Of a stretch of 25,368 bases of DNA, positions 2,951 through 25,368 are shown piece by piece. The stretch covers positions 71,621 to 96,988 of the forward strand of contig JAHFJJ010000001.1 of the NCBI GenBank assembly GCA_023245895.1, written 5' to 3'. The stretch's first letter is position 1. Every line of letters begins with the position of its first letter. The position numbers and the translations under genes are program-made. The stretch is from Candidatus Doudnabacteria bacterium. GTDB taxonomy: Bacteria; Patescibacteriota; Doudnabacteria; UBA920. Below the pieces are notes generated by a model. The model saw only the letters and a list, made by a program, of their open reading frames with translations. It did no database searches and was not told the origin of the DNA.

Positions 2951-3919
2951 TTAGATTAAACCCCAAATTAATTTTGCCAATTTGTCCGAGTCATGGCGCA
3001 AAAAACTGCGCTTTAATTTGTCGCCGGCTTTCTTTTTTATTACTCCGTCAGACAATAAATCTTCGGCAATAGCCTCAACTTTGGTTTGGGCCAAGGCCTG
3101 AATGTCAGCTTCCACAAACTTTGCTTTTTCCGCTGAATACTTTTTCAAAATATCAGCTCCCGGTTTTTTGTTGTTTGCTAAAACAAGGTCTATTCTGCCA
3201 TTAAGGTATTTCTCCAAGGTCTTAACAAAATCAGAAGCCTTAAAACCATCTGTCTGGCCGAACTTGGTCATAATATTAGTGACAAGGATTTTTTTGGCTG
3301 GTGATTTATTTACCGCTTCGGCCACGCCTTTGACCAAAAGGCTGGGTAAAACGCTGGTAAACAAATCGCCCGGCCCAAAAATTATGGCATCGGCAGAATG
3401 TAGTGCCTTAAGAACTTTTGGATTGGCCGGCAAATTTGGTTTTAATCTTAAGTCTTTAATCTTTAATCTTGTGCGAGGTTCGTCTATATTATGTTCGCCA
3501 ATTACTTTTTTGCCGTTTTCTAAAAGAGCCATCAGAGTTGTAGGTTTCAATGTTACCGGCAAAACAGCCCCGCGGACATTAAGCAATTTGCCTGCCGCTT
3601 CCAGCGCCTGCTCGGGGTCGCCGGTAATTTTTTCCAGCGCGGCTAAAATTATGTTTCCCGCGGTGTGGCCTTCAAGCGAACCGGCAGTAAACCTGTAGGC
3701 AAAAAGCTGCTTGTAAATTTCATCGGTATAAGAAAGGCCAATTAAGCACTGCCGGTAGTCGCCGGGCGGTATAATGCCAAGTTCATACTTTAACCTGCCG
3801 CCGCTGCCGCCGTCGTCCGCGGTGGAAGCAATTACACTATTATTGGACGGATACTTCCTTAACCCCGACAGCAGGGTAAGCGTTCCCGTTCCCCCGCCGA
3901 TTATTACAATATTTTTCAT
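2951..3919 (-). CDS. YvcK/GlmR (UPF0052, CofD-like) family protein
   Basis: The N-terminal KNIVIIGGGTGTLTLLSGL and DDGGSGGRL motifs are typical of the YvcK/CofD family. The six-frame ORF extends to 3952 (TTG), but the ATG at 3919 just before the GGGTG motif is the more likely start. Confidence 0.8.
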   Translation of the reverse strand: MKNIVIIGGGTGTLTLLSGLRKYPSNNSVIASTADDGGSGGRLKYELGIIPPGDYRQCLIGLSYTDEIYKQLFAYRFTAGSLEGHTAGNIILAALEKITGDPEQALEAAGKLLNVRGAVLPVTLKPTTLMALLENGKKVIGEHNIDEPRTRLKIKDLRLKPNLPANPKVLKALHSADAIIFGPGDLFTSVLPSLLVKGVAEAVNKSPAKKILVTNIMTKFGQTDGFKASDFVKTLEKYLNGRIDLVLANNKKPGADILKKYSAEKAKFVEADIQALAQTKVEAIAEDLLSDGVIKKKAGDKLKRSFLRHDSDKLAKLIWGLI

Positions 3920-3947
3920 ATGTAGTGTTCTCAAATAAACAAATTTG

Positions 3948-4025
3948 GACAAATATACAAATCTTAATTATTTCCACAAATATACACAACCGACATTTGT
4001 ATATTTGTGTTGATTTGTATATTCG
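3948..4025. promoter_or_regulatory. cluster of four copies of the CAAATATACA half-site (two direct, two inverted): candidate operator/promoter for the yvcK-like operon
   Basis: Direct copies acaaatatacaa (3949-3960) and acaaatatacaca (3977-3989). Inverted copies tttgtatatttgtg (3996-4009) and tttgtatattcg (4014-4025). On the minus strand the cluster contains an extended -10-like TGTGTATATT. Confidence 0.35.
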
Positions 4026-4031
4026 CGATTA

Positions 4032-5315
4032 CTACTTAATTATTGCCATTTCCTTGCCCACCTCTTCAAAAGCCTTAACCGTACTGTCCATTTGCTCTTT
4101 GGTATGCGCTGATGATATTTGCACGCGAATCCTGGCCTTGCCCTTTGGCACTACAGGATAAGTGAACCCGCGGACGTAAATGCCTTTTTCAAAAAGCGCG
4201 CGGGCCATATTTGCCGCCAATTTTTCTTCAAACAACATCACGGGCGTAATCGCATGCTTACCGTCCCCTCCAAGTGTAAAGCCCAGCTTTTCCATTTCGC
4301 CCCTAAAATATTTGGTATTTTCTTCCAGCTGATTTCTATACTGCGCAAACTTGCTGTCAAAATTCTGTAATACATATAGGGCTGTGGCAGTAATCATAGG
4401 GGGCAAAGCATTGGAGAATAGTGTTGTACGAGAACGCTGATGGAGCACCTGGATTATTTCCTTCCTTCCGGCCGTAAAGCCTCCGCCCGCGCCGCCAAGG
4501 GCTTTTCCAAAAGTTGAAGTTAAAATATCTATCCTATCCATAACTCCGGCCTGTTCAATACTGCCACGGCCGTTCTTTCCCAGCACGCCGCTTGCATGGC
4601 TGTCGTCCACCATAACCAAAGCGCCGTACTTGTCGGCAAGGTCGCAAATTTCTTTGAGCTTGGCAGTAATGCCATCCATAGAAAACACGCCGTCTGTTGC
4701 AATCAATATCCGACGGGGCTTATATTTGCTCCCCTCTCCCCCCTTGTCCGCCATAGCTTTAGCGTCGGCGGATGGGAGAGGGGCCGGGGGTGAGGGTTTC
4801 TCTGGCCTCGATGTCGCCTCCTTTAACTGCCTTTCCAAGTCCCCCATATCCGAATTTTTAAACCTAAACCTTTCTGCCTTGCAAAGCCTAACGCCATCTA
4901 TAATAGAAGCATGATTCAACTCATCAGAAAAAATCGCATCCCCTTCCTTTAAAATAGTTTCAAACAAACCAGTGTTTGCGTCGAAACACGATGTATAACA
5001 AATGGCGTCTTCCTGCCCAAAAAACTTGGCAATTTCTTTTTCCAAATCTTTGTGCACAGTAAGCGTGCCGCAAATAAAACGTACGCTACCAGTACCATAC
5101 CCATATTTATCCAAAGCCTCTTTCGCGGCTCGGGTTAAATCATCGGATGATGCCAAACCTAGGTAGTTGTTGGCACAAAAGTTCAAAAGTGTCTTGTCGC
5201 CGACTTTAATTTCCGTCCCCTGTTTGCCTTCAATAACCCCTTCTTCTTTCCAGGTCCCTGCGTCCTTTATTTCTTTTAGTTCATCTTCAAATTGTTTTTG
5301 ATAGTTTGCGTACAT
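4032..5315 (-). CDS. kbl: 2-amino-3-ketobutyrate CoA ligase (glycine C-acetyltransferase)
   Basis: 427 aa. It aligns end to end with E. coli Kbl (NFCANNYLGL, VRFICGT, LIATDGVFSMDG, TFGKALGGAGGG, ARIRVQISSAHT). It carries a roughly 32-aa low-complexity insertion (RPEKPSPPAPLPSADAKAMADKGGEGSKYKP) that E. coli lacks. Confidence 0.92.
   Translation of the reverse strand: MYANYQKQFEDELKEIKDAGTWKEEGVIEGKQGTEIKVGDKTLLNFCANNYLGLASSDDLTRAAKEALDKYGYGTGSVRFICGTLTVHKDLEKEIAKFFGQEDAICYTSCFDANTGLFETILKEGDAIFSDELNHASIIDGVRLCKAERFRFKNSDMGDLERQLKEATSRPEKPSPPAPLPSADAKAMADKGGEGSKYKPRRILIATDGVFSMDGITAKLKEICDLADKYGALVMVDDSHASGVLGKNGRGSIEQAGVMDRIDILTSTFGKALGGAGGGFTAGRKEIIQVLHQRSRTTLFSNALPPMITATALYVLQNFDSKFAQYRNQLEENTKYFRGEMEKLGFTLGGDGKHAITPVMLFEEKLAANMARALFEKGIYVRGFTYPVVPKGKARIRVQISSAHTKEQMDSTVKAFEEVGKEMAIIK
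4729..4796. repeat. nested GC-rich palindromic element inserted in-frame in kbl
   Basis: The outer inverted repeat cccctctccc (4731-4740) / gggagagggg (4774-4783) is perfect. The inner pair tccgcc (4747-4752) / ggcgga (4767-4772) encloses the 14-nt loop atagctttagcgtc. The element coincides exactly with the extra peptide segment of Kbl. Confidence 0.55.
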
Positions 5316-5316
5316 A

Positions 5317-5949
5317 TTATTCCTTCATTTCCTGGACACGAAAAATATCTTCGTGCTCCAAGTCTATAAAACCTTCCCGGGTGAATACGGCTGCAATACC
5401 CTTTTCTTTTAATTCTCTAAAATATCTACTTAACAAACTGGCGGTTTCATTTTCTTCTTTATCAGGTGAAAGCAATTTTGCCTGACCTGATATTGTTGAC
5501 ATGAAATCTCTGGTTATTTTTTGCAGCAGCTCAATAGCTGAACTTTTTTGCTCCAAAGTTTGTGACTCCTTCAACTCAAAAATTGCCGGGATTGTGTAGC
5601 CGATACCCGGGGATTCGCCGGTAGCCATTTGCAGCTGATAAAATTTAAATTCCTGTAAAGTTTTTTTTCCAAGCCCGCTTTCCGGCTCTCCTGTTAGTGT
5701 TAAAGAAAAATCGCTTTCATGCTTACCCAACACTGTAAGTGAATCGTGGTTCCTGTATATGTCTTTGAGTACGGGCGGGCCCGCAGTACCGGCAACGAAC
5801 CCGCGGAATTCAATAAAAGAATCCGGGCCTGTCTTAAGGCTTAAGAGTTCTTCATATTGTTGTTTGCTTATGGTTGGGTAATTTTCCGCCTCCTCACTGA
5901 ACTCCCTGGAAATAGTCCGTTCAGCGCTATCTTGTTCAAACTCTTGCAT
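5317..5949 (-). CDS. hypothetical protein co-transcribed between the tdh-like gene and kbl
   Basis: 210-aa ORF with no recognisable motifs. Its stop is 1 nt from the kbl ATG and its start is 10 nt after the tdh stop. Confidence 0.55.
   Translation of the reverse strand: MQEFEQDSAERTISREFSEEAENYPTISKQQYEELLSLKTGPDSFIEFRGFVAGTAGPPVLKDIYRNHDSLTVLGKHESDFSLTLTGEPESGLGKKTLQEFKFYQLQMATGESPGIGYTIPAIFELKESQTLEQKSSAIELLQKITRDFMSTISGQAKLLSPDKEENETASLLSRYFRELKEKGIAAVFTREGFIDLEHEDIFRVQEMKE
5769..5789. repeat. GC-rich palindrome gtacgggcgggcccgcagtac inside the hypothetical gene
   Basis: A perfect 10-bp palindrome GCGGGCCCGC is flanked by inverted gtac. It encodes GTAGPPV and is far more GC-rich than the surrounding coding sequence. 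Confidence 0.35.
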
Positions 5950-5959
5950 ATAATTTAGG

Positions 5960-7219
5960 TTAAAATTGTATTAAAAACTTAGGGTGCTTTGCCATCATTT
6001 CCTCAAACCTTTCCTTAGTATACTCTTCTATAGGCAAAATTGTGTCTTGGCCTCTGTCTAAAATTACGTTGAATAATTTTTCCTGGACGCCGTTTTTCGT
6101 GTTTTCCATTAAAGAGCGGGTTGTTTCCCATGTCTGCCAAATTTGCCGGCCAATGACAGCGTGGAAAGTAAAACCGTTGACAATAAGGCGGTTAAAATCT
6201 TCAAACACAAAATCTCCCTGCTTAATCCCAAAAAGAACAACTTCCCCTCCCCTGCGCGTGGCATACAGGCAATTATTTACAGAGGAATTAAAACCGGCCA
6301 TTTCAAAACTAATGTCCACGCCCACGCCGTTGGTAATTTTTTTAATTTCGTCGGTGAGGGATGTGTCATGGATGTAGGGCAGGGCCTTGCCCTGCTTGTT
6401 GGGCAGGCCGGGGGCCTGCACTACATTATACAACGGGATGACATAATCTATTCCCAACTTCTTCGCCATATCCTGCGTAACCGGATTCGGGTCCACTCCT
6501 ATTATAGAGGAAGCGCCCATGCCTTTTAAAACAATGGTTAAAAACATGCCGATTGGGCCTAACCCAAATATGGCGACAGATTTTCCTTTAACATCCACTT
6601 TGCTTGCCGCGTGGACCGCGTTGCCAAACGGTTCCTGCATGGCCGCGACTTCGGGACGGATTTTGGAAGTGTCGGTCTTCCAGACAATATGGCTTGGAAC
6701 TTTTGCAAATTCCGCGAACCCGCCGTCATGGGAAATGCCTAATATCTTTTCATTGGTGCAGACTTCTTTTTGCCCACGCAAACACTGGTAGCACTTATTG
6801 CAAACCACGTGGGACTCGCAAGCCGCGAAGTCCCCGGGCTTTAAATTTTTTACTGCTGATCCGACTTTAATAATTTCGCCAAAAAATTCGTGGCCAATTA
6901 TGCGGTATGTTTTACTTGCTGAAACTGCGAGTGCGGCCGAAGCAGTCCCGTCTTGTTTCAAGATTGCTTCGCCTCCTGCACTCCTCGCAATTTCATCATC
7001 TTTATCTATGCTCCCCAAAATGACATCCCTAAAAGCCTGCCTGTTCCAAATGCCGCGGTCAGTCCCGCAAATGCCGGCGTAGTGGACTTTCATAATTACA
7101 TAATTGGCGTCACCAGGATTATTTTTTTCATCCAAAACCGGCTCGGGAATATTTACCAATTCAAACCCGTGCGATGTTTCCCAATCATATTTAGATTTAT
7201 CAAACACCAATGCTTTCAT
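5960..7219 (-). CDS. tdh: Zn-dependent medium-chain dehydrogenase, L-threonine 3-dehydrogenase-like
   Basis: 419 aa, with an MKAL start. It has the catalytic-Zn motif GICGTD and GHEFFGEI, the structural-Zn motif CESHVVCNKCYQC...C, the GLGPIG NAD motif and EPFGNAVHA. It is adjacent to kbl, as in tdh-kbl operons. It carries two insertions of roughly 35 aa and roughly 15 aa relative to E. coli Tdh. Confidence 0.72.
   Translation of the reverse strand: MKALVFDKSKYDWETSHGFELVNIPEPVLDEKNNPGDANYVIMKVHYAGICGTDRGIWNRQAFRDVILGSIDKDDEIARSAGGEAILKQDGTASAALAVSASKTYRIIGHEFFGEIIKVGSAVKNLKPGDFAACESHVVCNKCYQCLRGQKEVCTNEKILGISHDGGFAEFAKVPSHIVWKTDTSKIRPEVAAMQEPFGNAVHAASKVDVKGKSVAIFGLGPIGMFLTIVLKGMGASSIIGVDPNPVTQDMAKKLGIDYVIPLYNVVQAPGLPNKQGKALPYIHDTSLTDEIKKITNGVGVDISFEMAGFNSSVNNCLYATRRGGEVVLFGIKQGDFVFEDFNRLIVNGFTFHAVIGRQIWQTWETTRSLMENTKNGVQEKLFNVILDRGQDTILPIEEYTKERFEEMMAKHPKFLIQF
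6373..6425. repeat. nested GC-rich palindromic element inserted in-frame in the tdh-like gene
   Basis: The outer inverted repeat is tgtagggcagg / cctgcactaca. It encloses two 7-bp stem hairpins (gcagggc-ctt-gccctgc and gcaggcc-ggg-ggcctgc). It encodes VQAPGLPNKQGKALPY, which is absent from E. coli Tdh. Confidence 0.5.
6926..6989. repeat. second nested GC-rich palindromic element inserted in-frame in the tdh-like gene
   Basis: The outer pair is tgcgagtgc / gcactcctcgca and the inner pair is ggccgaagcag / ttgcttcgcc. The central palindrome is cttgtttcaag. The element encodes part of the roughly 35-aa insertion between the CGTD and GHE motifs. Confidence 0.5.
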
Positions 7220-7757: not shown

Positions 7758-9572
7758 TTACTCAACTGTAACGCTCTTAGCCAAATTCCTTGGTCTATCG
7801 ACATCCCGGCCTAATGCTACTGATACATGATAGGCAAATAACTGGAGCGGGATGGTATTTAAAAGCGGTTCAAGCAGTTCCATAGTTTTTGGCAAATAAA
7901 TAATTTCATCAGCAACCTCTTTTGCCTCTTCATCGCCTTGTGTCGCGATAATTAAAGTTCTGGCCCCGCGGGCGCGGACTTCCTGGATGCTACTTTTCAT
8001 TTTTTCATATAACTGGTTTTTGGTCAAAATAGCCACCACCGGTACGTCTTTGCTTACTAACGCAAGCGGCCCGTGCTTTAGCGCGCCGCCAGCCAAGCCT
8101 TCGGCGTGGATGTAGGAAATTTCCTCAAGCTTCAAAGCGCCTTCCAAAGCCACGGGGTAATTTACGCCCCTGCCAATGAATAAAATATTTTTGTAATCTT
8201 TATAGATGTTGGCAATTTTTTTAATTTCTTCGTTCTGCTTTAAAATTTCATTCATCTTTTCGCTAATTTCCAAAAGCGATTGCAACATCCTCTGTCCTGT
8301 GGCCAGTGAGGTATGCTTAAGGCGTCCAAATTGTAAAGCGTACAATAGTAGAACCGCTGTCATGTTTGTATAGGCTTTAGTAGATGCCACCGCAAGCTCC
8401 GGGCCGGCGTGGATGTAAGTGCCGGCGCCGGTCTCGCGCGCAATGGTTGAGCCCACAACATTTACAATTCCCCTAACCTGCCCGCCCTTTCTTTTGGCTT
8501 CGCGCGCGGCCATTAGCGTGTCGGCGGTTTCTCCGGATTGCGAAATTACAAAAACCAAAGTGTCTTTGTTTACAATCGGGTCGCGGTAGCGGAATTCGGA
8601 TGAAAAATCCACTTCGGTGGGGATGTTCGCCAAACGTTCAAAAGCGTATTTGCCAATAAGCCCGGCATGCCTGGCCGTGCCTTCGGCAATTATCATTATC
8701 CTTTTGACTTTCCGCATTTCTTCTTCGGTCAAATTAAGCCCGCCCATTTTTGCCGTGCCTTCTTCCATGTCTATCCTGCCCCTAAGCGCGTCTTCAAAAA
8801 CTTCTTTCTGGTCAAAAATTTCCTTGAGCATAAAATTCTCAAAACCGCCTTTTTGCGCCTTAGCCTGGTCCCAGTCTATTTCCGTAATATTTTTGCTGAT
8901 GACTTCATTACGCAAGTTAAAAATTTTCAATTCAGAATTGATGGATGCAATCTCACCGTCATCTAAAAAGGTCACGCGCTTGGTAAACGGCAGCATTGGC
9001 GTTACATCGGACGCGATATAAAATTCATTTTCACCAATACCCACGGCCAAAGGACTGCCTAAACGCGCGGCGACCAGCTGGTGCGGATGGTCTGCGTGCA
9101 TAACTACAAGCCCGTATGTACCCCGAATTCCGGGTAAGGCATCTTTTACCGCCTGCACTAAATCGCCTTTATAATTTTGGTAAATCCATTTGGCCAAAAC
9201 CTCCGTGTCGGTTTGCGATTCGTAATTTTTGTCTTGGATTTTTTCTTTCAACTCCCGGTAATTTTCAATTATGCCATTATGGACAATAGCCATTCTGCCA
9301 TCCACAATATGCGGATGTGCATTAAATTCTGTCACTCCCCCGTGGGTTGCCCAGCGTGTGTGCGCGACGCCAATTGTTCCCGGCAACTTCTTGCCTTCCA
9401 GTTTTTGCGATAGCTTGTCCACCTTGCCCACTTCCCTAACGCGATCGATTTTCCCATTATCCAAAACCGCCACGCCAGCGCTGTCGTAGCCTCTATATTC
9501 CAAATCGCGCAATCCTTGTAAAAGGATAGGCAAAACCTGTTTATTTCCAACGTATCCGACTATACCGCACAT
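7758..9572 (-). CDS. glmS: glutamine--fructose-6-phosphate aminotransferase (isomerising)
   Basis: 604 aa. It has the N-terminal MCGIVGYVG Ntn-amidotransferase start with the nucleophile Cys2, two SIS domains, and the C-terminal ...VTVE tail. It is full length relative to E. coli GlmS (609 aa). Confidence 0.97.
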   Translation of the reverse strand: MCGIVGYVGNKQVLPILLQGLRDLEYRGYDSAGVAVLDNGKIDRVREVGKVDKLSQKLEGKKLPGTIGVAHTRWATHGGVTEFNAHPHIVDGRMAIVHNGIIENYRELKEKIQDKNYESQTDTEVLAKWIYQNYKGDLVQAVKDALPGIRGTYGLVVMHADHPHQLVAARLGSPLAVGIGENEFYIASDVTPMLPFTKRVTFLDDGEIASINSELKIFNLRNEVISKNITEIDWDQAKAQKGGFENFMLKEIFDQKEVFEDALRGRIDMEEGTAKMGGLNLTEEEMRKVKRIMIIAEGTARHAGLIGKYAFERLANIPTEVDFSSEFRYRDPIVNKDTLVFVISQSGETADTLMAAREAKRKGGQVRGIVNVVGSTIARETGAGTYIHAGPELAVASTKAYTNMTAVLLLYALQFGRLKHTSLATGQRMLQSLLEISEKMNEILKQNEEIKKIANIYKDYKNILFIGRGVNYPVALEGALKLEEISYIHAEGLAGGALKHGPLALVSKDVPVVAILTKNQLYEKMKSSIQEVRARGARTLIIATQGDEEAKEVADEIIYLPKTMELLEPLLNTIPLQLFAYHVSVALGRDVDRPRNLAKSVTVE

Positions 9573-19433: not shown

Positions 19434-19437
19434 TAAT

Positions 19438-19598
19438 GGGTCTTCTGCCGAATGTCATTTTGACTGCAATTTCAAAATTTCGGCCATTCGACCCAAAAAA
19501 TTTATCCGCTTAACTAAAGTTAAACATCAAAATTTATTTGTGCCGACTGTCTCGAAATTTTGAAATTTCGTTACAAAAGCACATTCGGCAGAAGACCC
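19438..19598. repeat. 161-bp near-perfect inverted-repeat element (MITE-like or structured RNA) filling the ATPase-permease intergenic region
   Basis: The terminal 18-bp inverted repeat gggtcttctgccgaatgt (19438-19455) / acattcggcagaagaccc (19581-19598) is perfect. The inner 15-bp pair is aatttcaaaatttcg / cgaaattttgaaatt. The tip hairpin is ttaac-taaa-gttaa. The element ends 5 nt before the permease ATG. Confidence 0.6.
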
Positions 19599-19603
19599 AT
19601 ACA

Positions 19604-20968: not shown

Positions 20969-20976
20969 ATCATATA

Positions 20977-21094
20977 GCGGGCAGCCGCCTACTTTTGCGC
21001 ATACATGCGTATGACTATCATTGGCCCGTGCGTGTTTTACTACTGAGTTCGGGATGGGATCAGGTAGGACCACGCTGGAAATGCCACCCTCGTC
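20977..21094 (-). rRNA. rrf: 5S ribosomal RNA
   Basis: The minus strand reads ...GUGGUCCUACCUGAUCCCAUCCCGAACUCAGUAGUAAAACACGCA..., matching the conserved 5S core (GGUCCCACCUGACCCCAUGCCGAACUCAGAAGUGAAAC). Terminal helix I pairs GAGGGUGGC with GCUGCCCGC. Confidence 0.8.
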
Positions 21095-21303
21095 GTACTT
21101 TATTCCGTGATTGGAGAATAAAAAACAAAGAGGGGGACACTTAGATCACTTATTATGGCTTAATTGCATTTACTGTGCCTTGAGTAAGGACGAAAAATCC
21201 GGCTGTTACTAAAAATATAATTAAAATAACCGCAAAAACCTTTAAGTGATGCTTCATTATAAGGGGGTAAATAAATTGTTATTGTACTGTTATGAACATT
21301 GTA

Positions 21304-21331
21304 CTATCCGCCTTCGCTAAAGCTTCGGCGG
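21304..21331. repeat. copy of the short palindromic core element (atccgcc-N14-ggcggat with loop cgctaaagct) in the 23S-5S spacer
   Basis: It has a 7-bp perfect stem atccgcc/ggcggat and a 14-nt loop ttcgctaaagcttc. The kbl insertion has the same stem and loop length and shares the 10-nt loop core cgctaaagct, in the opposite orientation. Confidence 0.45.
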
Positions 21332-21717
21332 ATGACTCTCTACTAAATAAATTATAGTGAGTCACAAATTGCTAGTCAATAGAAATAGAATTAAAATTTT
21401 CGGTTGATTAGTATTGCTCGGCTGAACACATTACTGTGCTTACACCTGCAACCTATAAAACGAGTGGTCAGTGATTAGTGTTTAGTGATTAGTATTGCTA
21501 CTATCCACTGCCCACTGCACACTATCCACTAGTTATGATACGGGGTAGTCTTCCCCGAACCTTTATTATGTATTGCTACATAAAACGAAACCTAGTTTCT
21601 TGGACGGCTTCACGCTTATATGCATTCAGCGCTTATCCTAACTAGACCTAGCTACCCCGCCATGCCGCGGACGCGACAACGGGTACACCAGAGGTCTATG
21701 CATCCCGGTCCTCTCGT

Positions 21718-22569
21718 CACATATTCTTCTGTCACCAGAAGTGCAGACTATATCTTCATCCTATCTTATACCTTAGGCTCCTGGGCCATAGTATTTTTTT
21801 ATGATAGGTGTCGGCGTATTATAGAAATAGTAGAAAGTATAAAGTTGAAAGTTTAAAGTAACTGCAATTGCAGTCCTTTTCACTTTCTACTTTTAACTTT
21901 TAACTACCTTCCATCTCCTCTTTCGAGTCAGTCGTTACGGGGTCAAACCTAAAATCTTAAATAATTCAAGTCCGGTTTTCTTTTTCCGAGTTGCGTAGTT
22001 ATTATTTTGAATTATTGTTATACAGCTTATAATTTTCCTGAGTTCAGATTGCGTAAAATTAGCAATCTTTTTCCCTTCCAGAATTCCGGCTGCTTTATAC
22101 AAAGCCGCAGCTTGTTGCTTCTTAAAACGTATAAATGGAATTAAATCTTTAAGAATGTTTTTAATTTGAGTCACCCCGTTTATACGAAGTTCGCTCATTC
22201 CGTCATTTCTGCGGGATAAGTACCCAATGCCTAAAACTTTCTTAATCCAGAAAAGTTCTGCTTCATGGCGGCTATCCTGATAAAAACAGATAGTGCACAT
22301 AAAACGAACTTTTTTCTTTCCATCTTTGCGCTTTTTGATTTGCAACATTAAGCTGCCGTCTCCGTCTAAAAAGCCGGCAATATAAGCTAAATCAATTTTA
22401 GATCGACTTCCCACGGTATTGTCTTAATATTCTTGGTCCTCAAGTAAATTGTACCATAACTGAAGAACCGTTACAATTATGGTTATCAACGGATGCAAAA
22501 TATATTAAGATTTCACCGTTATTAGCCGAATTTTCAAGGCAGATTACTCTGCCAAGTAGCAAACCCTTT
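21718..22569 (-). other. intron (group I-like, 852 nt) inserted in the 23S sarcin-ricin loop (E. coli U2656/A2657 equivalent)
   Basis: The 5' exon ends ...GCGCAUCCCUAGU (22570). The 3' exon starts ACGAGAGGACCGGGAU (21717). Joined, they restore the universal SRL CCUAGUACGAGAGGACC closed by the AUCCC/GGGAU stem. The intron starts with A after an exonic U and ends in G. Confidence 0.7.
21935..22414 (-). CDS. LAGLIDADG homing endonuclease (single-motif) encoded in the SRL intron
   Basis: It has the LAYIAGFLDGDGS motif near its N-terminus. It is 159 aa with a GTG start, and lies entirely within the intron. Confidence 0.85.
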   Translation of the reverse strand: MGSRSKIDLAYIAGFLDGDGSLMLQIKKRKDGKKKVRFMCTICFYQDSRHEAELFWIKKVLGIGYLSRRNDGMSELRINGVTQIKNILKDLIPFIRFKKQQAAALYKAAGILEGKKIANFTQSELRKIISCITIIQNNNYATRKKKTGLELFKILGLTP

Positions 22570-22699
22570 ACTAGGGATGCGCCCAATCAAGTTTCGAACA
22601 CCCACAGCAGATAAGGACCAAACTGTCTCACGACGTTTTGAACCCAGCTCGCGTACCACTTTAATATGCGAACAGCATAACCCTTGGGAGCTTCTTCAC

Positions 22700-22738
<39 letters not shown>

Positions 22739-23308
22739 TCTCGTCGATGTGGACTCTTGGAGAGGATCAGCCTGTTATCCCTAGAGTAACTTTTATCCGT
22801 TGGGCTTTGCGTCTTCCACTCGAACGCATCGGATCACTAACTTCCACTTTCGTGCCTGCGCGGGTCGCCGCCCTTGCAGTCAAGCATGCTTATGCGTTTG
22901 CACTATCAGCATGATTTCCATCCATGCCTAGCATACCTTAATAAACGCCTCCGTTACCATTTAGGAGGCAACCGCCCCAGTTAAACTACCCACGAGCCAC
23001 TGTCCCAAAGTAGGTTAGACTTTGGTTAGAATTAATATTTTTACAGAGTGGTATTTCACCTTTTGCCTCCATTTGAGCTGGCGCCCAAACTTCAAAGGCT
23101 CCCACCTAGGCTAAACAATAAAAGCATTAATTCAATGACACGCTATAGTAAAGCTTCATAGGGTCTTTCCGTCTTGCTGCGGGTAGACGGCATCTTTACC
23201 GCCACTGTAAGTTCATCGGAATGTTCGTTAAGACAGTTCTCTGCTCGTTATGCCATTCGTGCGGGTCGCAACTTACGCGACAAGGAATTTCGCTACCATA
23301 GGACAGTT

Positions 23309-24044
23309 CATAATGTTAGCTTCATGTTTCCATGAAGTTCAGACTATATCATTCCATCAATTGGATGGATTCGGCGTTTAGTCGTTGAGGGTTTTTACTA
23401 AATGATTCTTTAAAATTTGTTAAATTATGCTTTCGAGTTCTACCTTTTCCTTCATTTAAGTCCTCACGAAGTTTTACTATTTCTAGCAACCCTTCCTGAT
23501 TTAAATGTTGGCTTGCAAAAACTAATCTTGCAATTTTAGAGAATAACGAATAGTTTCTTTTTTTACTAGCGGACAAGAAACCGAACCGGTCAAAGAAAGG
23601 AATTATTTTTTCTTTGAGTGCTGTATGATTTTGGACAATATATTGATGCACGCCATCTTTCCTATGGTCAATGCGACCACAGCCTAAATGATGCTTCAAC
23701 AAAGCAAGTACGGTAATGTCTTTTTGAGCAACATTAAACGTTAATATTACTTGCCATAATACTTTACTGTCGTTTCGTTTACGAAGGGAAACATTAAAGC
23801 TTCCTTCTCCGTCTACAAAACCTGCAAAGTAATTTCCAATTTCAACAGGAATTTGCTTTAACCAATTTTGATCCATAAAGTTTCCTTCTGAATCTTTTAG
23901 TAAATCTTCCCTGCGGATTGACTGTATCTTGTAAATTTTTACTGTCAATTTAATGACGAGTATTACAAGCTTTAAGCACATCAAAGTCCTTTGTGTGCAC
24001 AGTTATTCCCGCAAATAGCCAAATTTTATAACTACAACATGTTC
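23309..24044 (-). other. group I-like intron (736 nt) in 23S helix 69 at the L1917-equivalent site
   Basis: The 5' exon ends ...GGCAGUAACUAU (U at 24045). The 3' exon starts AACUGUCCUAUGGUAGCGAAAUUCC (23308). Joined, they give the H69 loop UAACUAUAAC. The intron ends in G. The junction can slide by 3-4 nt because of the local repeat gaac...gaac. Confidence 0.65.
23349..23984 (-). CDS. LAGLIDADG homing endonuclease (single-motif) encoded in the L1917 intron
   Basis: It has the NYFAGFVDGEGSF motif. The likely true start is the internal Met at 23876 (MDQNWLKQIPVEIGNYFAGF...). The longer N-terminal extension probably reads through intron core sequence. Confidence 0.85.
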   Translation of the reverse strand: MMCLKLVILVIKLTVKIYKIQSIRREDLLKDSEGNFMDQNWLKQIPVEIGNYFAGFVDGEGSFNVSLRKRNDSKVLWQVILTFNVAQKDITVLALLKHHLGCGRIDHRKDGVHQYIVQNHTALKEKIIPFFDRFGFLSASKKRNYSLFSKIARLVFASQHLNQEGLLEIVKLREDLNEGKGRTRKHNLTNFKESFSKNPQRLNAESIQLME

Positions 24045-24814
24045 ATAGTTACTGCCGGCGTTCATCAGGGCTTGGCCGATCGGCTTGCGCCAACCGGTTT
24101 AACCTTCTGACACTGGCCAGGCATCAGCCCGTATACATCAGCTTGCGCTTTAGCACGGACCTAAGTTTTTGGTAAACAGTCGGAGGAGATCTTTCGCTGC
24201 GGCCCTGTACCATTCATTCGCTTACGCGAATTCAGGTGCAGGGCAAGGTATATACCGAAGGTACACCTGCTTTTTTGCCGAGTTCCTTAACGAACATTGG
24301 TCCGGACGCCTTGGGATTCTCTCCCCATCCACCTGTGTCGGTTTACGGTACGAGCACTTTATAACATGACTTCGACGCTTTTCTTGACACCTTGATTCAC
24401 ACTAATCTCCGTTGCCAGATTTTTTTATGCTTTCGAGATTACAATCGCATCAACCATCTCTTGCGAGGTAAGCTGATGTAATATAGGAACTCCGGATTTA
24501 CCTAAAGTTCCACCCTACGAGCACAACAACGCCAATAGTCAGATGACGCTAATGTTATCATGATGCGTCCCGCCTAAGATAATTATAAAGCGGTTATGGA
24601 ATATCAACCATATTTTCCATCGGGTGAACCCCTTGGGGCCCACTCTTAGGATCGACTAACCCAGGGACGACGATCGTTGCCCTGGAAACCTTGGATATTC
24701 GGCGAAGAGGATTCTCACCTCTATATATATTACTTATTCCAACATTCTTACTTGTACACTGTCCACGGCCGCTTACGCATACCGCTTCAGCCTGTGTACA
24801 ACACTCCTCTACCA

Positions 24815-24927
24815 CTTATGCGAAGCATAAGAACAATTAACTTTTAACAATTAACAATTGACCGGCTGCAGACTGCAGTAGTTAATCGTTAATCGTTAAT
24901 TGTTACCAGTTTTTATGCTTCGCATAA
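24815..24927 (-). repeat. 113-nt hairpin expansion segment in 23S (replacing the short helix after the GTPase-associated centre), built of tandem 7-10-nt repeats
   Basis: The base palindromes are cttatgcgaagcataag and tttatgcttcgcataaa. Tandem aacaattaac copies pair with tandem gttaatc copies around the central palindrome ctgcagactgcag. E. coli has only GCGGCAGCGACGCUUAUGCGUUGUUGGGUAG at this position. Confidence 0.5.
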
Positions 24928-25010
24928 ATCCACGTCTTCGGCACCTAGCTTAGCCCCTATATATTGTCGGCGCAGGATCGCTTGACCAGTGAGCTGTTAC
25001 GCTTTCTTTA

Positions 25011-25047
<37 letters not shown>

Positions 25048-25368
25048 GGGCAATCCCACATCCTTTGCACTATAGCTAGGATTTGGGGGCCTTAGACGGT
25101 GGTGTGGATTCTTCTCCATTTGTCTCGTGAAGCTTAGACCTCACGGACTGACTGCCAATTTCTTGACCTTTAGAATTCGGAGTTTGGTTGGAGCCTACCG
25201 CTTGCGCAGCAGGTTTCCATTCAGTGCTCTACCTCTAAAGGGAACAATTGACGCTAGCCCTAAAGCTATTTCGAGGAGAACCAGCTATCACCCGGTTCGA
25301 TTGGAATTTCTCCCCTACGCACAGCTCATCCCCTATTTTTGCAGCAATAGTGGGTTCGGACCTCCCGT

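Follow-up and report, generated by a model that had tools for sequence, protein, structure and literature searches.

The gene for an L-threonine 3-dehydrogenase-like protein (tdh) of a Candidatus Doudnabacteria genome contains a nested palindrome between the codons of its catalytic Cys and those of its GHE motif. This locus raises the question of what the palindrome is and why a conserved gene has kept it. The gene lies in a stretch of 25,368 nucleotides (assembly GCA_023245895.1, contig JAHFJJ010000001.1, positions 71,621 to 96,988), hereafter the window, and the organism belongs to the Candidate Phyla Radiation (CPR), or Patescibacteria. The palindromic segment is very probably a copy of a small non-autonomous repeat that resembles dimers of repetitive extragenic palindromic (REP) sequences or Rickettsia palindromic elements (RPEs). 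The copy would have inserted in tdh and would have been kept since it preserves the frame, contains no stop codon and falls in a surface loop that tolerates it.

The product of the host gene is predicted to be a Zn-dependent L-threonine 3-dehydrogenase (TDH). The protein exhibits the medium-chain dehydrogenase/reductase fold, the catalytic Cys and the GHE motif. Its closest relatives in PDB, both by sequence and by predicted fold, are archaeal (Pyrococcus and Thermococcus) and bacterial L-threonine 3-dehydrogenases. The gene is also linked to kbl in a cluster with the order tdh, ORF210 and kbl, where the kbl-like aminotransferase gene (4032..5315) is located two genes downstream of tdh. The insert is in frame and is located between C51-G-T-D and G109-H-E of the protein.

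The length of the stretch from Cys to GHE was determined for 120 close Tdh relatives from Candidatus Doudnabacteria and other Patescibacteria, and the spacing was also compared among 80 genome loci. Comparison DNA loci are denoted by L-numbers and Tdh homologue proteins by P-numbers. The stretch consists of 34-38 aa in about half of the 120 homologues and of 40-87 aa in the rest. Non-CPR relatives among the 80 loci (about 45% identity) have 34 aa in all but a few cases, and those from Polyangiaceae and delta-proteobacteria have 40 aa. Since nearly all non-CPR relatives have 34 aa, the ancestral spacing of this TDH subfamily is 34 aa. The spacing in the window is 61 aa, thus the insert amounts to 27 aa or 81 nucleotides (nt).

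The initial annotation had placed the palindrome at 6926-6989 and had estimated an insertion of about 35 aa with E. coli Tdh as the yardstick. The palindrome is indeed present at that location with its outer, inner and central parts, although its outer arms extend a few bases beyond that span (6921-6994). The estimated size has to be replaced by 27 aa, as the other residues that are extra relative to E. coli or Pyrococcus TDH are ancestral and E. coli Tdh does not have the helix extension that is common to this subfamily. Two checks that the annotation had proposed were run and both agree with it: the segment is missing from the many orthologues that have the minimal 34-38 aa, and its pairing exceeds that of shuffled sequences. 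The segment in mRNA sense (6916-6999) folds with a minimum free energy (MFE) of -37.0 kcal/mol, compared with -21.2 +/- 2.8 kcal/mol for dinucleotide shuffles (n = 200; z -5.6), and none of the 200 shuffles folds as well. The DNA fold of the element has a z of -4.5, and the z of the window hairpin ranges from -5.1 to -5.6 across folding runs. The element has a GC content of 0.54 by direct measure, compared with 0.44 for the window, and the composition profile at 60-nt resolution exhibits no sharp GC anomaly at the insert. The segment encodes 27 residues that are rich in Ala and Ser.

The DNA of 11 orthologues that bear similar-looking inserts served as the source of a family definition and of an nhmmer profile. 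Members of this family are about 65-95 nt long and reach about 126 nt where a second element is nested inside. The canonical termini (C/T)GTCATTGCGAG...CTCGCAATGAC(G/A) and the inner stem GAAGCAATC/GATTGCTTC are common to 10 of the 11 orthologue copies, and the eleventh (L082) has variant termini. Built from copies outside the window, the profile gives a match at window positions 6916-6993 (E 7e-15) and identifies 20 further distinct copies in CPR loci. The same profile finds no copy below E 0.1 in about 55 non-CPR tdh loci. The window itself holds a single copy. All copies in the CPR loci, including that of the window, are located within long open reading frames (ORFs), at the Cys-to-GHE loop of tdh (site B), at a second tdh loop after DYVIPL (site A), in glmS and in acs. 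Their shared reading frame gives the peptide V/E-I-A-R/S...E-A-I...I/T-A-S...L-A-M/V, after which the family is referred to as VIA..LAMT. ATP synthase gamma and beta fragments in the protein database carry the family peptide in the same frame, as found by a profile search with the doubled peptide that scored the 8000 most word-rich candidates, gave mainly short spurious ORFs and is not a census of host proteins. Long hairpins are formed by all 20 copies that were folded (the window copy and 19 others), and their z values lie between -3.1 and -8.2.

All 12 aligned copies retain the outer stem of 11 bp. The window copy belongs to a subfamily with the termini GAAATTGCGAG...CTCGCAGTTTC, represented by three of the aligned copies, in which a UA pair is changed to AU and a CG pair to AU on both arms, and one more pair is changed to G-U. 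Of the other two, one occupies the corresponding tdh site in L082 and one lies in the glmS gene of a different genome (L001:1104-1184). Identity to the window copy is 81% for the glmS copy and 78% for the tdh copy of L082, whereas the tdh genes of the window and L082 outside the element exhibit 64% nucleotide identity and 43% identity at third codon positions. A non-coding copy with the termini GAAATTGCGAG...CTCGCAATTTC is located just upstream of rplK in an AT-rich genome (L211:2553-2625). Since the subfamily occurs in tdh, in glmS and in non-coding DNA, what these sites share is a DNA element and not a Tdh-specific protein segment.

The family is also found outside CPR. Predicted viral contigs of IMG/VR were scanned for the exact 11-nt canonical termini, and the canonical repeat was found on at least 120 contigs, sometimes with two or three copies per contig. 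The viral loci L091-L170 have a mean GC of 0.60, therefore those viral contigs do not originate from CPR-like hosts. Phages or prophage regions could carry the family between phyla. The viral-contig copies among the matches listed are mostly located between ORFs or at ORF ends. The 158 copies among these matches, an unselected sample, are spread evenly over the three length classes (57:53:48; chi-square p 0.68), and any given frame is closed in roughly half of these copies. Outside CPR, the family is mostly extragenic, with no constraint of frame or length. ORF calls on such copies account for the many short 'hypothetical proteins' of the VIARSxSDEAI..IASS..LLAMT type that metagenome catalogues list. 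The insert in tdh is a copy of a dispersed DNA family that exhibits conserved inverted termini and a conserved inner stem, and whose copies are spread over different genes, non-coding DNA, several phyla and many viral contigs.

The stability of the fold also suits another explanation, in which the hairpin has acquired a role within the ORF as a cis-acting RNA element, such as a ribosome pause site, a target of RNase III or RNase E, or an mRNA stabiliser, and has been retained on that account. The sense hairpin is very stable (-37 kcal/mol), the G-U pair that is common to all three subfamily copies is valid in the sense RNA only, and REP hairpins influence mRNA decay (PMC3733652). This explanation is nevertheless improbable. 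The G-U pair represents one inherited change, the presence of the element is not tied to any particular gene class, and the orthologues work with other inserts or with none. The element also matches no Rfam family, as searches of the whole window at gathering thresholds and of the element and a canonical copy at permissive E-values returned only meaningless miRNA-like hairpin matches.

What the orthologues carry at site B was examined on a neighbour-joining tree of the 120 proteins from which the insert columns had been taken out. The site-B states are interleaved on this tree. The nearest neighbours of the window Tdh have a canonical VIA..LAMT copy (P0002), inserts of unrelated families (P0004 and P0003) or an empty site (P0005 and P0018). 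At least five other insert types occur in the same loop, namely TPSA..PPL..GEGVG, PPL.KG..GGV, SASSDSASPPKGE, TRNLTRKDAE and tandem repeats of NSKQQT. Nested or adjacent combinations of inserts are also found, for example in P0068 and P0046. The loop between Cys and GHE of Tdh is an insertion hotspot that holds this family, unrelated palindromic families, nests of them or nothing, depending on the lineage. Some of the shared states may be inherited, and an exact count of events is not possible. A comparable loop is present in GlmS after GKVD.L.KK, where three CPR genomes have acquired VIA..LAMT-family inserts, one of them from the window subfamily. This loop is empty in the glmS of the window (7758..9572 on the minus strand, residues ~50-66).

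A second loop of Tdh, site A, is variable as well, and in the orthologues it is a hotspot where several have VIA..LAMT copies. Site A of the window (6365-6430 on the minus strand, residues ~264-285) is occupied by a short GC-rich stretch that forms two small hairpins (z -3.7).

The AlphaFold2 model of the window Tdh, built from the alignment of 120 sequences, has a mean predicted local distance difference test (pLDDT) score of 91. Its template modelling (TM) score against Pyrococcus TDH 2dfv is 0.90 when normalised to the target, and the TDH fold is kept. The native helix (residues 64-74) runs on into the first third of the insert, and residues 85-98 of the insert have pLDDT below 50. Apart from this part, confidence is weak at residues 268-272 only, which correspond to site A. 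The predicted model fits a tolerated excursion of a surface loop that is compatible with the fold.

These results bear on the explanation that the insert is a lineage-specific functional protein loop, with a role in regulation, oligomerisation or interaction with a partner, and that the palindrome is incidental. The single reading frame with its recognisable peptide and the predicted lengthening of the native helix by the first third of the insert would agree with such a loop. We consider it very unlikely, even more so than the RNA element. Unrelated genes and non-coding DNA hold this DNA too, with these inverted termini, and it is also found in other frames. The nearest Tdh relatives hold unrelated inserts or none at the same position, and the model has low confidence over the insert. 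Conservation also follows the base-paired arms, with compensated changes.

The reading frame of the copies bears on how they are treated by the cell. In the intragenic copies of CPR, the length between the 11-nt termini is 2 modulo 3 in 12 of 13 cases. Frame 0 is open in all 13, whereas frame 1 contains stops in all 13 and frame 2 in 11. Since the copies follow this rule of frame and length, they are probably translated through, which argues against splicing; removal of the 81-nt segment by splicing is unlikely on these sequence grounds. The contrast between the intragenic copies of CPR and the copies on viral contigs is the signature to be expected if selection retains readable, frame-preserving inserts.

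Removal after transcription or translation, as a mini-intron, an rRNA-like intervening sequence or an intein, is accordingly a highly improbable explanation. CPR rRNA introns do exist, and LAGLIDADG ORFs are present in and beside the 23S rRNA gene of the window. However, 81 nt is far below the size of group I and group II introns and of inteins, Rfam and Pfam give no signal, and a constant length modulo 3 together with a single open frame would be needless if the RNA segment were removed. An error of assembly or sequencing, such as a collapsed repeat or a chimeric join, which a metagenome-derived genome and the mis-assembly of repeats might suggest, can practically be dismissed, as the frame is intact, homologous inserts are present in many other assemblies, and the same 419-aa protein with its insert is encoded on two independent assemblies (the 96,988-bp contig at NCBI and k141_6876982 at ENA).

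The ends of the copies were examined for traces of mobility. The base before GTC is C in 66% and T in 30% of the copies, and this is mirrored at the opposite end; among the CPR copies, T accounts for 92%. The palindrome is therefore one pair longer, with C/T before GTC and G/A after GAC, and its ends read CGTC or TGTC. The window subfamily has lost this tag (ATGAAATT...). No target-site duplication is present in 143 of the 156 viral-contig copies among the matches listed, nor in any of the 13 CPR copies, and no conserved target sequence is seen beyond the Y/R pair that extends the palindrome. Half-units of the form TGTC-ATTGC...GCAAT-CC occur alone and clustered in L212, and all other copies are inverted dimers. 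The stem of a half-unit begins with ATTGC/GCAAT and is followed by CC. It pairs over about 5 bp around a loop of about 12 nt, and stems of 8-11 bp form between the two halves.

Because of the missing target-site duplications and the CGTC/TGTC-tagged ends, the nearest known systems appear to be the dimers of CGTC-tagged REPs and the Rickettsia palindromic elements, with an incomplete match to the former. As described by Di Nocera et al. 2013 (PMC3733652), CGTC-tagged REPs include RPE-4, RPE-6 and Neisseria dRS3, and TGTC variants are common. According to the same authors, their stems start with A-T, A-T and have 8-9 bp, with loops of 4-5 nt and a short tail (CCA); inverted dimers predominate, intragenic dimers encode 20-30 aa and no dedicated transposase is known. 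The family in this work is similar to them in having (C/T)GTC at both ends at the family level, the ATTGC...GCAAT stem start, the CC tail after the half-unit, both singletons and inverted dimers that fold to one hairpin, no target-site duplication and coding intragenic copies. It differs in the stem of about 5 bp and the loop of about 12 nt of its half-unit, and the likeness drawn here covers the tag, the stem start, the tail and the dimer form. PMC3733652 reports no CGTC-tagged REP family from CPR.

RPEs are short palindromes that are found in frame in unrelated housekeeping genes, where they are translated at sites compatible with the fold, and that are also found in non-coding DNA (Ogata et al. 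2000, as cited in PMC10969869 and PMC3733652). The family in this work likewise has in-frame and probably translated palindromes in housekeeping genes, has non-coding copies and has a host with a small and gene-dense genome. The window copy is in a conserved ORF that orthologues have without the insert, it keeps the frame without a stop codon, and its site is fold-compatible on the predicted model, where it is a low-confidence loop. The likeness is one of description and not of sequence, as the family differs from RPEs in its sequence and its phylum and is about 80 nt long, compared with about 100-150 nt for RPE-1. Another difference is that a single protein loop is struck repeatedly here by several families and nested copies.

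REPINs are REP doublets that form hairpins, are moved by RAYT tyrosine transposases, carry a GTAG tag and are almost entirely extragenic. The family resembles them as a dispersed, imperfect palindrome of about 70-110 nt with two inverted units and a spacer and with no target duplication. It differs from them as its termini are YGTC instead of GTAG and no RAYT gene is present among the window ORFs, where no genome-wide RAYT search was made. [quoted passage not shown] The family differs from MITEs in having no target-site duplication, in being a hairpin over its whole length instead of terminal inverted repeats that flank an unrelated core, and in having no known parent insertion sequence. Intragenic REPs have been documented in several phyla, as PMC10969869 and PMC3733652 state.

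If the segment is a repeat copy of this kind, it would have spread as DNA, probably via a hairpin form and without target duplication, as has been proposed for REP and REPIN sequences. Selection would then purge the insertions that break the frame or the fold, and permissive loops would be the chief refuge left to it in a gene-dense genome. The peptide as such would most likely be neutral baggage, and the stable hairpin in the mRNA may affect translation or mRNA decay as a side effect; no function is required by the data.

Several results weigh against the origin of the segment as a mobile repeat copy. The location of 20 of 20 copies in genes is in itself not significant, as the sample of CPR loci is centred on tdh and is about 90% coding. 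No transposase is present among the window ORFs and none is linked to the family in this work. No two near-identical genomes were found of which one has the site filled and the other empty, thus neither the precise junctions nor the mode of insertion is established. The metagenome contigs gave no match to the termini of the window subfamily in an exact-pattern scan, and this variant is not abundant. Part of the distribution at site B could also be old inheritance plus loss and not repeated insertion.

The coordinates of the element, its parts and its host gene are shown in Table 1.

Table 1. The palindromic insert of tdh, the arms of its hairpin and the host gene, in window coordinates.
Feature	Position	Strand	Basis
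Inserted element, 81 nt, codons 75-101 of Tdh (DEIARSAGGEAILKQDGTASAALAVSA)	6917..6997, boundaries +/- ~1 codon	(-)	Spacing of 61 vs 34 aa; nhmmer; hairpin
5' outer arm in mRNA sense, GAAATTGCGAG, variant of canonical GTCATTGCGAG	6984..6994	(-)	Sequence; aligned with 11 other copies
3' outer arm in mRNA sense, CTCGCAGTTTC, variant of canonical CTCGCAATGAC	6921..6931	(-)	Pairs with 6984-6994: two compensated positions, one G-U
Inner-stem arm, GGCGAAGCAA in mRNA sense, family block GAAGCAATC	6964..6973	(-)	Sequence and alignment
Inner-stem arm, CTGCTTCGGCC in mRNA sense, family block GATTGCTTC (here GACTGCTTC)	6935..6945	(-)	Sequence and alignment
Central palindrome cttgtttcaag	6952-6962		Sequence
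Host gene, Zn-dependent L-threonine 3-dehydrogenase-like, 419 aa	5960..7219	(-)	Pfam ADH_N and ADH_zinc_N

The initial annotation had also described three elements within one operon that share the motif gcttcggc. Several in-frame palindromic inserts are indeed present, but they belong to different families: site B has GTCATTGCGAG...CTCGCAATGAC, the kbl insert is a nest of two others, and site A is different again. The window has four occurrences of the motif where 1.07 would be expected, and four are also attained in 2 of 100 shuffles. Unrelated coding sequence holds two of the four, only one of the three sites other than that of the insert lies in a repeat element, and the motif is absent from 2916-2930, where it had been reported. 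The motif was rejected as a tie between the three inserts of the operon on account of this weak evidence and the mismatch of families.

The kbl insert (~4715-4800 on the minus strand) encodes the in-frame segment PEKPSPPAPLPSADAKAMADKGGEGSK and consists of an outer CCCCTCTCCC...GGGGAGAGGGG around an inner TCCGCCGACGCTAAAGCTATGGCGGA. Its overall fold has a z of only -1.8. A non-coding copy of the inner palindrome (82-85% identical, hairpin z -3.6) is located at 21306-21332 in the spacer between the 23S and 5S rRNA genes. The family of this inner palindrome (F/YAKATSDRS-type) is nested inside VIA..LAMT elements in L083, L088 and L010. The 210-aa ORF between tdh and kbl (5317..5949 on the minus strand) has no Pfam family above threshold. 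In relatives, tdh and kbl are adjacent or are parted by other unrelated small ORFs (L084, L087, L088 and L089).

Just downstream of a cofD-like gene (2951..3952), the region 2905-2950 contains CCTTCGGATGCACTC...GGGATGACA, which is similar to the right arm CCCTCGGATGCACTCGGGCTCGCAATGACA of the VIA..LAMT family. This region may be a decayed half copy of the family, and it folds no better than its shuffles (z 0.0). Its GACACTTAGAT is seen again at 21136. The 23S rRNA gene (22523-25368 on the minus strand), which is cut by the window end, has about 685 nt beyond the model span and a LAGLIDADG ORF inside (23349..23984). A second LAGLIDADG ORF (21935..22414) is located between the 3' end of the 23S rRNA gene and the 5S rRNA gene (20976-21091 on the minus strand). 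The extra sequence and the two ORFs look like typical CPR rRNA insertions. Inside the 23S rRNA gene, an inverted repeat with many CAATTAAC repeats (24816-24927; arms of 47 nt with 81% complementarity) is possibly a further hairpin insertion. A 27-nt inverted repeat (19436-19462 and 19574-19600, 93% complementary) lies across the gap between the genes for an ABC-transporter ATPase and an FtsX-like permease.

In-frame palindromic repeats in genes are already known from Rickettsia, and intragenic REPs are known as well. As far as the searchable literature goes, no published description of this family or of in-frame palindromic inserts in CPR was found. The more interesting aspects are the hotspot for multiple families and the strict usage of frame. 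A broader and tentative reading, to which we give somewhat less than an even chance, is that CPR bacteria harbour a guild of at least five or six palindromic families (VIA..LAMT, FAKATADK-like, PPL..KG..GGV, TPSA..GEGVG, SASSDSASPPKGE and TRKDAE) that have genes as their main niche. These families might have evolved forms compatible with translation, with one open frame, a fixed length class and peptides rich in Ala, Ser and Lys. They might colonise, nest in and replace one another at a few permissive loops (Tdh sites A and B, GlmS, Kbl and ATP synthase), and they might be phage-carried and perhaps moved by a hairpin-recognising enzyme shared across phyla. If this reading is true, the guild would rank among the major sources of variation in protein length in CPR and would be one not described so far.

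The findings in this work indicate that selfish palindromic DNA in genes is not confined to Rickettsia but is also present in CPR, by way of a family whose copies are extragenic in other bacteria and frequent on viral contigs. They explain the large differences in length among CPR orthologues and the many spurious VIARS..DEAI..IASS..LLAMT 'hypothetical proteins' in metagenome catalogues. Such inserts should be treated with caution and not be taken as functional domains or phylogenetic characters. The hotspots are well defined (the Tdh loop between Cys and GHE and the GlmS loop after GKVD.L.KK), and filled and empty alleles at these loops could expose the element in the act of moving together with the enzyme that mobilises it.

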